Shown piece after piece: positions 5,195 to 22,401 of a stretch of 64,000 bases of DNA. The position numbers and the translations under genes were made by a program. The DNA lies in the IMG/VR virus record IMGVR_UViG_3300001919_000035, positions 10,257-74,256 of that record; one strand, given 5' to 3'. The DNA comes from a virus (taxonomy: Duplodnaviria > Caudoviricetes). Within the stretch, counting starts at the first letter, position 1. Each line of letters begins with the position of its first letter. The notes under the pieces were generated by a model, which had not been told where the DNA came from, ran no database searches, and saw only the letters and a list, made by a program, of their open reading frames with translations.

Positions 5195-5267
5195 TCTCTA
5201 TTAGCTCAGTTGAGTAGAGCGTATGATTTGGGTCATAAGGTCACTGGTTCAAGTCCAGTATAGAGAA
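5195..5267 (+). tRNA. tRNA-Pro(TGG)-like with a 6-nt anticodon loop
   Basis: Acceptor TCTCTAT/ATAGAGA, D GCTC/GAGC, anticodon stem TATGA/TCATA with loop TTTGGG, T-arm ACTGG-TTCAAGT-CCAGT; no encoded CCA. Confidence 0.7.
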
Positions 5268-5272
5268 CAAAT

Positions 5273-9018: not shown

Positions 9019-9481
9019 AACTTTTTCTTCTAAATAACAATTCAAAACCACGTTTGCATGTGAATGTAGACGTGGTCATCAGTAAATGACAAACCTGTGG
9101 GGCGTAAATAATCTCATGCGTCTGAGTGGTAAATGTAATTCGGCTTGATGGTGTTAGCACATACATTATCAAAATGTTTTATACACCGCCTTTTAGATGT
9201 GCTAGTGGCATGAGTTTTATGATCGTGCGGACGTAAAAATCAGGTAGATAATAAGAATTGTACTAGCAATACATTTCTGCTGTATCTTTAAACATGTAAT
9301 TAACGCTATAATTACTCTTTTCATTAGATCTCCTCGCTCATTGAGAAAGAGTAATTGTTTTCTCTCAAGGGAGTTGCACTTACGCTACAACGTAAGATAA
9401 ACGAATAGATCAGGCGACCGAAGCCTTATCCAGAATAGTTGTAGATATTCTGGCGTCATCAAACTTTTAAACATTATCAAA

Positions 9482-10047: not shown

Positions 10048-10324
10048 TCCGCCAGTCTAATATTCTTGTTTATAACTCTTAATAATTAAATTATGAGTAA
10101 AAGGTGGTCAACCCCAAGTATGTTAGTAATACATCTAACGCCCTAACCTCAGTAAAAGGTATATGAAGTCATATACTACGAGTAGTGTGTACATTTTATG
10201 TGCAAATGATATATTCACAGGAATATATTAATTAAAAGAAGGGAAGGAGATGCTCTCGAATAAGAAATAGGAATAAGAGAGACATACTTTTATTAGCAAA
10301 ACATTTCAAAATTTAACATTAATA

Positions 10325-11047: not shown

Positions 11048-11449
11048 ATAACTATCTTTTACATTCCATCCTCAGTCTCTAGAAGCAAGAGGAATAAAAA
11101 CGAAGTTTAGTAGTGAAATGAGCATGAATGAACATGCTTACTCAAGACCTATAAGGCAGTAGTAGGAACTATTGTAGACATCACAGTCAAGGATATACAG
11201 ACCCTTAGAGGCAGGTTTAATTCCATATATCCAACTATCAAGGTCTAAGACGAAAGTAATAAGTGCTTTATGCCACCTATTGTTATAGTATCTTATATTT
11301 TAATGCAGGTTTATTGTTTAAGTACGAAGTGTATTACTAATAAATACTTTTAATAATAGATTATTATAAGTAATCAAAAAGGTGTAGGCTGAGAAATTAG
11401 CCTACACTTACTATCATTTTTTCATTTTTAAGTGATTTTATTCACAATA

Positions 11450-11740
11450 TAAGAACTGTATTGTGTCTTACTAGGCTTATTAATCATTGTTAGGACGAGG
11501 GTTCGACTCCCTCCAGCTCCACGCTCATAAGAGCTACAAAGGGCAAAGTAAAACTAGGATTTTTGATCGTGTTAACCGTGCGCCAAGTTTTTAAATTTTA
11601 GAACGGTTAAAAGGGGCTGCTTGGATTTGACTAGCAAAATTCATTAATAAGATAGGTTCATGTGTGTTTAAATGGCAATATTTTTGTCACAGACTATACT
11701 CAACTAGCAGTTGCGTAAAGTCACGTGCTAACTACGAAAG
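11450..11740 (+). ncRNA. ssrA: Circularly permuted two-piece tmRNA gene (outer ends approximate)
   Basis: Acceptor piece GGAC-GAGGG-TTCGACT-CCCTC-CAGCTCC-A (11493-11521) precedes the 5' piece GGGGCTG...GGATTTGAC (11613 onward). G3:U70 pair, P2 pairings TAGCAA/TTGTTA and ATTAATAAG/CTTATTAAT, tag frame 11674-11718 GNIFVTDYTQLAVA*. Confidence 0.9.
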
Positions 11741-11746
11741 TGAGGA

Positions 11747-11801
11747 CTATCTAGTAGAGTAATCGAGTGGAAAGGTGGGTTCGATTCCCACCTAGATAGC
11801 A
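11747..11801 (+). ncRNA. Minimal tRNA-like element (acceptor plus T-arm)
   Basis: CTATCTAG/CTAGATAG stem, T-arm GTGGG-TTCGATT-CCCAC, 20-nt interior without an anticodon arm. Confidence 0.6.
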
Positions 11802-11824
11802 ACATTTTTAAAAATTTATCAAAA

Positions 11825-12163
11825 ATGAATAAGGATGGTTTAACACTAACAATCGAACATTATCGATTGTATGTAATGGAGAACATGCCCGAATCTTGGA
11901 AACGGGCTGCACTGAATCACAATGTACTAGAACAGCTTATTGAAGCTGTAGCTAGGTATTGTCTAGAACATCGCTTAAAAGGCAGTGAATTGTACTATCA
12001 TTTACATGAAAATGAATTGATATGTGCAGCATCTTTTGATAGCGAACCTCAAGGAATAGATTGGTGGATGGACATTAGTTCTGAAGCTAGTATGTTAGAG
12101 AATCATGGTTGTATTAACACGTATGCAGAAGATGAAGAAAACGGCAACACAAATGAAGTATGA
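11825..12163 (+). CDS. Hypothetical protein
   Basis: 112-aa ORF with TTATCAAAA leader. Confidence 0.7.
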   Translation: MNKDGLTLTIEHYRLYVMENMPESWKRAALNHNVLEQLIEAVARYCLEHRLKGSELYYHLHENELICAASFDSEPQGIDWWMDISSEASMLENHGCINTYAEDEENGNTNEV

Positions 12164-22277: not shown

Positions 22278-22349
22278 GTGTGTATAATTCAACTGGAAGA
22301 AATGATTCTTACGAGACTCTATATACAGGTTCGAGTCCTGTTACACACA
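22278..22349 (+). tRNA. tRNA-Arg(ACG)-like with a 6-nt anticodon loop
   Basis: Acceptor GTGTGTA/TACACAC plus A, D-loop with GGA (A20), stem GATTC/GACTC (one mismatch) with loop TTACGA, T-arm ACAGG-TTCGAGT-CCTGT. Confidence 0.6.
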
Positions 22350-22401
22350 CAAATCCGTTACATAAACATTTTACAAAATTATCAAAATTAAAAGTAAAGT
22401 C

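Follow-up and report, generated by a model that had tools for sequence, protein, structure and literature searches.

The window, the whole 64,000-nucleotide stretch analysed here, very probably carries at 11440–11747 of its plus strand a functional tmRNA (ssrA) gene in circularly permuted form, which belongs to a crAss-like phage of the Suoliviridae (Boorivirinae). This gene most likely derives from a one-piece Bacteroidota host tmRNA. Two-piece tmRNA is a textbook case of gene permutation, known from three bacterial lineages and from organelles. In the window, the acceptor piece comes first, followed by a 91-nt spacer and by the coding piece. The predicted mature RNA is of ~85 + ~135 nt (~220 nt), against ~395 nt for the host genes. 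Judged from its sequence and from its relatives, the element is a real permuted, half-sized tmRNA gene of a gut crAss-like phage. The unit is predicted to begin after a terminator-like hairpin, and the following features were delineated.

11380–11409, plus strand: terminator-like hairpin of the upstream gene, a 13-bp stem followed by a T-rich tail.
11443–11465, plus strand: 5' hairpin of the acceptor piece, stem CACAATA/TATTGTG, loop TAAGAACTG (−7.6 kcal/mol, z = −2.8).
11471–11475, plus strand: conserved CTAGG (UUAGG in most relatives), internal loop between P2c and P2b.
11476–11492, plus strand: 3' strands of P2b (11476–11484) and P2a (11487–11492), from covariation.
11493–11521, plus strand: 3' half of the tRNA-like domain, with GGAC (11493–11496), the T arm, the acceptor 3' strand and the discriminator A (11521).
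11497–11513, plus strand: T arm GAGGG-TTCGACT-CCCTC, read from the sequence.
11514–11520, plus strand: acceptor 3' strand CAGCTCC, pairing with GGGGCTG.
11522–11612, plus strand: intervening segment, predicted to be removed in processing, with hairpins at 11523–11534 and 11572–11610.
11613–11631, plus strand: 5' half of the tRNA-like domain, with the acceptor 5' strand GGGGCTG (11613–11619), the D-loop analogue CTTGGATTTGAC and GAC (11629–11631).
11632–11659, plus strand: 5' strands of P2a (11632–11637) and P2b (11643–11651), ATAGG (11652–11656) and the P2c strand GTTC (11656–11659), from pair counts.
11674–11718, plus strand: tag frame GNIFVTDYTQLAVA, conserved in relatives, with resume codon GGC after TTTAAAT and stop codon TAA.
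11705–11730, plus strand: helix-5-like hairpin around the stop codon, TAGCA/TGCTA outside and CGT/ACG inside (predicted fold).
11719–11747, plus strand: 3' tail of the coding piece with the motif GCTAACTACGAAAGTGAGG, conserved in relatives.
11748–11799, plus strand: tRNA-like minihelix, acceptor stem TATCTAG/CTAGATA, T arm GTGGG-TTCGATT-CCCAC (−15.8 kcal/mol, z = −2.1).

ARAGORN calls a permuted tmRNA at 11432–11853, with the same two tRNA-domain halves as listed above. No tmRNA is reported in the window by Rfam 15 at gathering thresholds. In a permissive Infernal/Rfam scan, RF04321 (tmRNA_permuted) is matched over the whole model at 11464–11718, with 46.5 bits (E = 4.5e-8), thus missing the gathering cut-off of 47 by 0.5 bit. 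This match ends exactly at the TAA of the tag frame at 11718. Among the 18 related loci scanned, 13 pass the RF04321 cut-off (49.6–66.2 bits), and ARAGORN also reports the genes of the relatives as permuted. The sole other tmRNA match listed is that of beta_tmRNA, with 30.7 bits for a cut-off of 84, and it is confined to the tRNA-like domain (model positions 76–168). The alpha and cyano tmRNA models scored lower still and were removed by clan competition. An attP-type fragment of a host tmRNA is ruled out by the presence of both halves of the tRNA-like domain and of the tag frame. The original prediction had described a circularly permuted two-piece tmRNA and proposed ARAGORN and Infernal runs on the window and its relatives. 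These runs, together with an architecture showing covariation in 44 distinct relatives, bear the description out, and all its coordinates were found correct on re-reading.

By BLAST against phage records, the region was found only in Suoliviridae crAss-like phages: cr55_1, cr1_1, cr10_1, cr50_1, cr52_1, cr60_1, and cr114_1, in agreement with the crAss-like origin first proposed. The nearest phage is cr10_1 (Canhaevirus, Boorivirinae), with ~77% identity across 78% of a 12-kb stretch, a distance indicating that the window phage is of a related but different species. At the homologous position, GenBank/RefSeq records of cr10_1 (NC_055875.1, 26352–26737), cr50_1, cr52_1, cr60_1, and cr114_1 already bear the label "transfer-messenger RNA, SsrA". 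As these homologues are annotated and flagged as permuted by ARAGORN, and two-piece phage tmRNAs have been published for marine phages (PMC9004378), the novelty initially suggested for the gene is not supported in that form. One ARAGORN survey counted 53 phage two-piece tmRNAs, 50 of them from marine or aquatic samples (PMC9004378). The 2025 tmRNA database contains 79 phage sequences, and RF04321 was derived solely from genes of the alpha, beta, and cyano lineages (PMC11915505). Our full-text literature search returned no account of a crAss-like phage tmRNA. The GenBank/RefSeq records hold a feature label only, and no text describing the permutation, structure, or origin of the Suoliviridae tmRNA was found. 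The window gene is therefore a new member of a family that is catalogued but undescribed, and this family is a new variant of two-piece tmRNA.

The annotated gene of cr10_1 is homologous to that of the window, with 78% nucleotide identity over the gene. The annotated Suoliviridae genes and the window gene have in common the permuted order, the helices, the tag family (GN..VTDYT..), and the genomic neighbourhood, with Hatchet and RAGATH RNAs upstream. Compared with cr10_1, the window gene differs by one tag substitution, N3I (GNNFVTDYTQLAVA in cr10_1, GNIFVTDYTQLAVA in the window), by a longer P2b, and by a downstream tRNA reduced to a minihelix. In the window, a Hatchet ribozyme (9075–9245, 72.9 bits) and a RAGATH-9 RNA (10104–10292, 81.6 bits) lie 1–2 kb upstream of the tmRNA gene on the same strand. 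The upstream block of the relatives contains Hatchet, RAGATH-9, RAGATH-20, RAGATH-22, and RAGATH-7 RNAs.

An IMG/VR pattern scan built from the phage T-arm and acceptor sequence, supplemented by the RefSeq loci, yielded 44 distinct crAss-type genes. An alignment of 25 diverse sequences (A1) was used for pair counts. The two halves of the tRNA-like domain, GGGGCTG (11613–11619) and CAGCTCC (11514–11520), form the 7-bp acceptor stem with G3:U70 that had been read at the outset, and G3:U70 is found in 25/25 sequences of A1. Acceptor positions 5–7 covary (GGGGCTG/CAGCTCC, GGGGCAT/ATGCTCC, and GGGGTTG/CAACTCC), and the T stem is GAGGG/CCCTC or AAGGG/CCCTT according to the relative. The T-arm, GGAC, and GAC elbow motifs are invariant in A1. 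The missing CCA and the 91-nt gap between the halves (spacer 11522–11612) are likewise as first described. The discriminator A11521 is followed by CGC in the DNA; with no CCA encoded, that of the acceptor piece would have to be added after transcription.

Below the tRNA-like domain, the two P2 helices of the original reading hold in the window: P2a pairs TAGCAA (11632–11637) with TTGTTA (11487–11492), and P2b pairs ATTAATAAG (11643–11651) with CTTATTAAT (11476–11484). Among relatives, P2a occurs as TAGCAA/TTGTTA, TAGTAG/CTATTA, or AGCGA/TCGTT, and P2b as ATAAG/CTTAT, ATAGA/TCTAT, or AATGA/TCATT. All these variants, like those of the acceptor stem and T arm, are complementary. Pairs of the acceptor stem, T arm, P2a, and P2b were counted on A1, with slid 3' partners as a control. 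Over the 25 sequences, 88% of the cells are paired (48–59% with slid partners) and 11 pairs are changed on both sides (at most 4 in the slid controls). The observed covariation score was reached by 0/500 shuffles. In the same sequences P2b is 96% paired, with changes on both sides in four of its six counted pairs, and P2a has three pairs changed on both sides. Run on joined MAFFT alignments, RNAalifold retrieved no more than the T arm, P2b, and a portion of the acceptor stem owing to shifts in the alignment, and we therefore relied on the explicit pair counts. The canonical two-piece fold is at most 1.8 kcal/mol above the unconstrained cofold minimum. TAGG of the 11471–11475 motif is invariant in 25/25 sequences of A1. 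Two conserved UAGG motifs (11471–11475 and 11652–11656) face each other in the loop between P2b and P2c.

Three elements missing from the original prediction were found subsequently: the 5' hairpin of the acceptor piece, the P2c helix, and the downstream tRNA-like minihelix. The stem of the 5' hairpin covaries in relatives (ATATCA/TGATAT, TACGATA/TATCGTA) and its loop never changes. Bases GAAC of this loop (11453–11456) are complementary to GTTC of the coding piece. This P2c pairing is GTTC/GAAC in the clade of the window versus GTCAA/TTGAC in the other clade, corresponding to two compensatory changes. As GAAC belongs to the invariant loop of a covarying hairpin, P2c would form a two-strand pseudoknot where PK1 normally sits. 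No canonical PK1 exists in the window, as the 22 nt separating P2b from the resume codon cannot accommodate one, and the P2c helix occupies its place. We found no conserved pseudoknot after the tag, nor on either side of it. The pseudoknot loss suspected from the window is thus supported, canonical PK1 and PK2 being both absent. In contrast, known two-piece tmRNAs typically keep both (PMC3985003).

The tag frame has 14 codons, no start codon, and a hydrophobic Ala-rich C-terminus. ARAGORN marks its own window tag as "not identified" and gives ANYESEDYLVE followed by a stop (11727–11762), a frame overlapping the tail and the minihelix and without counterpart in relatives. The ARAGORN tags of the relatives (GNNFVTDYTQLAVA, GNNFVTDYTAIGA, GNTSYVTDYTRLVA, GNTSYVMDYTRLAA, and GNFYVTDYTRIAA) fall in the frame originally proposed, GNIFVTDYTQLAVA in the window. 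This frame is therefore the right one and the ARAGORN window tag is a mis-call. A further tag among relatives is GNTFVTDYTALGAA. Altogether, 13 tag variants share G-N/K-..-F/Y-V-T-D-Y-T/S-..-A. Within the six core codons, third positions vary in 6/6, first positions in 2/6, and second positions in 2/6, and the V, D, and Y codons undergo synonymous changes only. This is, on the alignment, the pattern expected of a translated frame. All 44 frames stop at TAA or TGA; 43 start with GGC and 43 have GCG before the stop. In relatives the resume codon retains its UAAAU context, and the tag family persists across three subfamilies. Loss of pairing or of the tag frame in relatives would have counted against the original prediction; both are kept.

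The coding piece continues beyond the tag. The equivalent of the helix-5-like hairpin in clade 2 is GCTTAG/CTAAGC, and support for this hairpin is weaker than for the other helices. In the 3' tail, the motif GCTAAC-TACGAAAGTGAGG (11727–11746) is conserved. Pairing of the tail (11725–11744) with the P2 strands of the acceptor piece, which forms the RNAcofold minimum, was rejected: in 15/16 relatives the canonical P2 duplex is the stronger of the two, and the tail pairing is no better than in shuffles and lacks compensatory changes.

The spacer folds as noted from the window sequence, with GCTC/GAGC at 11523–11534 and TTAACCGT/ACGGTTAA at 11572–11610, the second hairpin ending 2 nt short of G1. 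Its stem TTAACCGT/ACGGTTAA covaries with TCTACCGT/ACGGTAGA in cr52_1. Spacers of the relatives measure 17–216 nt and their content is replaceable. Some contain a tRNA-His(GUG) or an opposite-strand ORF (loci L007:1561–1633, L093, and L118; L247, L251, L260, and L263). The spacers of 17–18 nt belong to two relatives (L246 and L280) that have an altered elbow, GAGAC and GAT instead of GGAC and GAC. We found no host-type promoter, sigma-70-like or TAnnTTTG, upstream of the unit or in the spacer. A second promoter within the spacer was discarded: there is no sigma-70-like excess and no Bacteroides-type TAnnTTTG, and the 17–18 nt spacers leave no room for one, which makes a single precursor the simplest model of transcription.

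The minihelix at 11748–11799 has neither D nor anticodon arm. Rfam reports no tRNA at this position and gives only 16 bits to tRNA-Sec. A T arm is present 60–98 nt past the stop codon in 41/44 relatives, and in 21 of those 41 ARAGORN identifies a full tRNA, such as tRNA-Lys(UUU) or tRNA-Leu. In several lineages, including that of the window, only the acceptor stem and T arm are left after independent reduction. By this comparison, the window minihelix is a truncated remnant of the tRNA-Lys(UUU) seen at the same place in relatives. An acceptor/T-arm minihelix is the minimal substrate of RNase P. The repeated reduction to this form fits the role of a cutting mark, and the minihelix probably marks the 3' end of the coding piece. 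In the tRNA located just 3' of the tmRNA gene, at least 12 relatives show an anticodon oddity ("tt"). The same oddity affects two tRNA genes of the window, at 5195–5268 and 22278–22350, to which ARAGORN attributes 6-nt anticodon loops ("2-nt anticodons" tg and ac). These two genes score 59.1 and 37.9 bits, respectively, with the Rfam tRNA model.

We infer the processing and function of the window tmRNA from these features and from the RNase P and tRNase Z model proposed for two-piece tmRNA (PMC3985003). One precursor would span the acceptor piece, the spacer, the coding piece, and the downstream minihelix. Host RNase P would cut 5' of G1 (11613) and 5' of the minihelix (~11748), thereby releasing the 3' end of the coding piece. 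After A11521, trimming by RNase Z or an exonuclease would be followed by the action of a CCA-adding enzyme. The products would be an acceptor piece of ~85 nt and a coding piece of ~135 nt, joined through the acceptor stem (7 bp), P2a (6 bp), P2b (9 bp), and P2c (4–5 bp). Host AlaRS would charge the RNA through G3:U70, and host SmpB and EF-Tu would deliver it to stalled ribosomes. As the 74-kb record (73% complete) revealed no SmpB gene, SmpB would be supplied by the host. Translation would resume at GGC 11674, appending Ala-GNIFVTDYTQLAVA, with release at TAA. The benefit to the phage would be ribosomes kept available during infection and a phage-specific tag. As this tag ends in AVA instead of the LAA of host tags, it is uncertain whether it targets proteins to proteolysis.

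Three other interpretations of the gene were weighed against a functional two-piece tmRNA. The RNA could be made and folded but act mainly as a decoy, soaking up host SmpB, AlaRS, or EF-Tu and thereby blocking host trans-translation instead of tagging. The absence of a canonical PK1 and of a host-type LAA end would suit such a role, and mycobacteriophage DS6A offers a reported precedent, its CDS-less tmRNA inhibiting that of the host (cited in PMC11915505). However, the tag frame is maintained at the protein level by third-position changes that are synonymous, the resume codon retains its UAAAU context, and a stop codon is never missing. A pure decoy would need none of these, and we consider this explanation improbable. 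Slightly less credit still is given to a gene that is decaying and non-working in the window phage, as could be suggested by the Rfam score just below the cut-off, the failure of ARAGORN to find the tag, and the downstream tRNA cut to a minihelix. All helices, G3:U70, the T loop, GGAC/GAC, and the whole tag frame are nevertheless intact in the window, where P2b is even longer (9 bp) than in relatives, and several other lineages with a reduced minihelix have retained the gene.

The permuted precursor might also pass through a circular intermediate and be rejoined as a one-piece RNA, so that the mature tmRNA would not be in two pieces. Permuted tRNA genes are rejoined by the archaeal/eukaryal splicing endonuclease and a ligase acting on a bulge-helix-bulge motif, and such rejoining is not known from bacterial tRNA processing. 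We saw no bulge-helix-bulge motif in the window gene, and the tail of the coding piece and the leader of the acceptor piece are separated by the downstream tRNA-like element and the upstream terminator. Despite the precedent of the permuted tRNA genes of red algae (cited in PMC3985003), this is the least probable of the three. A functional two-piece tmRNA is thus the reading that we retain.

The origin of the permutation was addressed by scanning 185,579 genomes, one per prokaryote species, with two independent patterns corresponding to the 3' and 5' halves of the phage tRNA-like domain. Each pattern returned 120 loci, mostly from Bacteroidota. ARAGORN identified ~200 tmRNAs in the returned loci, all of them one-piece and most with Gly-first tags (GENNYALAA, GNNNYALAA, GNTSYQLAA). 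The original prediction took the Bacteroidota gene to be one-piece; accordingly, ~200/200 bacterial tmRNAs sharing the tRNA-like domain are contiguous. The phage 3' half (region of 11493–11521) is 97% identical over 35 nt to the 3' ends of Bacteroidota tmRNAs (RF00023), and the 5' half is 95% identical over 19 nt. The phage gene also has in common with them a Gly resume codon in AAAUGGCAA context and, frequently, the UUUGAC elbow. Among tmRNAs picked by the 3' half only, U precedes GAC in 70/86 Gly-tag genes (81%) and C in 10/12 others, and the elbow is UUUGAC in all crAss genes. Outside the tRNA-like domain and ~12–17 nt around the resume codon, the phage gene does not align to host genes. 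The Bacteroidota tmRNA is contiguous, ~395 nt long, and has pseudoknots and an encoded CCA, whereas the phage gene is permuted, of ~220 nt in its mature form, and has neither canonical pseudoknots nor an encoded CCA. The phage tag is longer than Bacteroidota tags such as GENNYALAA and GNNNYALAA, and unrelated to them past the first two residues.

The two-piece tmRNAs of alpha, beta, and cyano lineages (RF01849, RF01850, and RF01851, merged in RF04321) and marine phage copies such as that of Melnitz (PMC9004378) have the acceptor piece first, as in the window. The alpha, beta, and cyano forms also resemble it in a tRNA-like domain made from two RNAs, a tag frame on the coding piece, and presumed processing by tRNA enzymes. 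Their match to the window is however limited to the tRNA-like domain. The RF04321 consensus, derived from these lineages, has a UUCGAC elbow and an Ala resume codon (GCA), whereas the window has UUUGAC and the Gly codon GGC. Their coding pieces typically have PK1 and PK2 flanking the tag (PMC3985003), and the window coding piece (~135 nt) has neither. The nearest bacterial relatives of the window gene are one-piece Bacteroidota genes and not these two-piece tmRNAs. The Gly resume codon, the UUUGAC elbow, and the near-identical 3' half shared with Bacteroidota, together with the failure of the lineage-specific models, favour a separate permutation derived from the host gene. The independent permutation suggested at the outset is therefore the best reading and a likely one, based on a few characters in short conserved segments and not on a resolved tree. 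With somewhat less than even confidence, we propose that the Suoliviridae tmRNA represents a fourth independent two-piece origin, having arisen in phages from a one-piece Bacteroidota gene and lost all four pseudoknots. P2c would then replace PK1, the tRNA or minihelix would be retained solely to mark where the 3' end of the coding piece is cut, and the F/Y-V-T-D-Y-T core, conserved at the protein level, would be a phage-specific signal directing rescued polypeptides to a fate unlike that conferred by the host LAA degron.

In cr55_1 (L002:2555–3260), cr1_1 (L003), and six IMG/VR contigs (L249, L255, L294, L295, L272, and L297), the T loop is interrupted after TTCGAT by a group I intron of ~705 nt. 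This intron matches RF00028 with 58.7 bits (cut-off 50), and its opposite strand bears an HNH-endonuclease ORF. Neither cr55_1 nor cr1_1 has a tmRNA annotated in RefSeq. Intron type and site are those of described intron-containing tmRNA genes with a group I intron in the T loop (PMC11915505); the window itself is intron-free. In contrast to the gene forms listed in Table 3 of PMC11915505, which do not include "permuted plus intron", the split gene of the crAss relatives is permuted. In the window, standard finders report a wrong tag or narrowly miss the gene; where an intron splits the T loop, they miss it wholly. Permuted tmRNAs with the same tRNA-like domain and other tags (GKTINFSNAPLRAVA, GKVVNMNQVGMRKAA, AKVIQMNPFQAVATAA) were observed in five non-gut IMG/VR loci (L013, L115, L055, L081, and L111). 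These may be relatives of the gut family from the environment, and the two included in the Rfam scan, L013 and L055, pass RF04321. We also considered stop-codon recoding. The longest ORFs of the window, up to 4258 aa, are already obtained unchanged with the standard code, and we therefore claim no link to recoding.

If this reading is true, a further origin of two-piece tmRNA would lie within one of the most abundant groups of human-gut viruses. The gene would also provide a natural minimal tmRNA, of ~220 nt and without canonical pseudoknots, which could serve to test which parts of tmRNA are needed. These phages would invest in ribosome rescue with a tag unlike that of their host, which raises the question of how crAss-like phages manage host translation.
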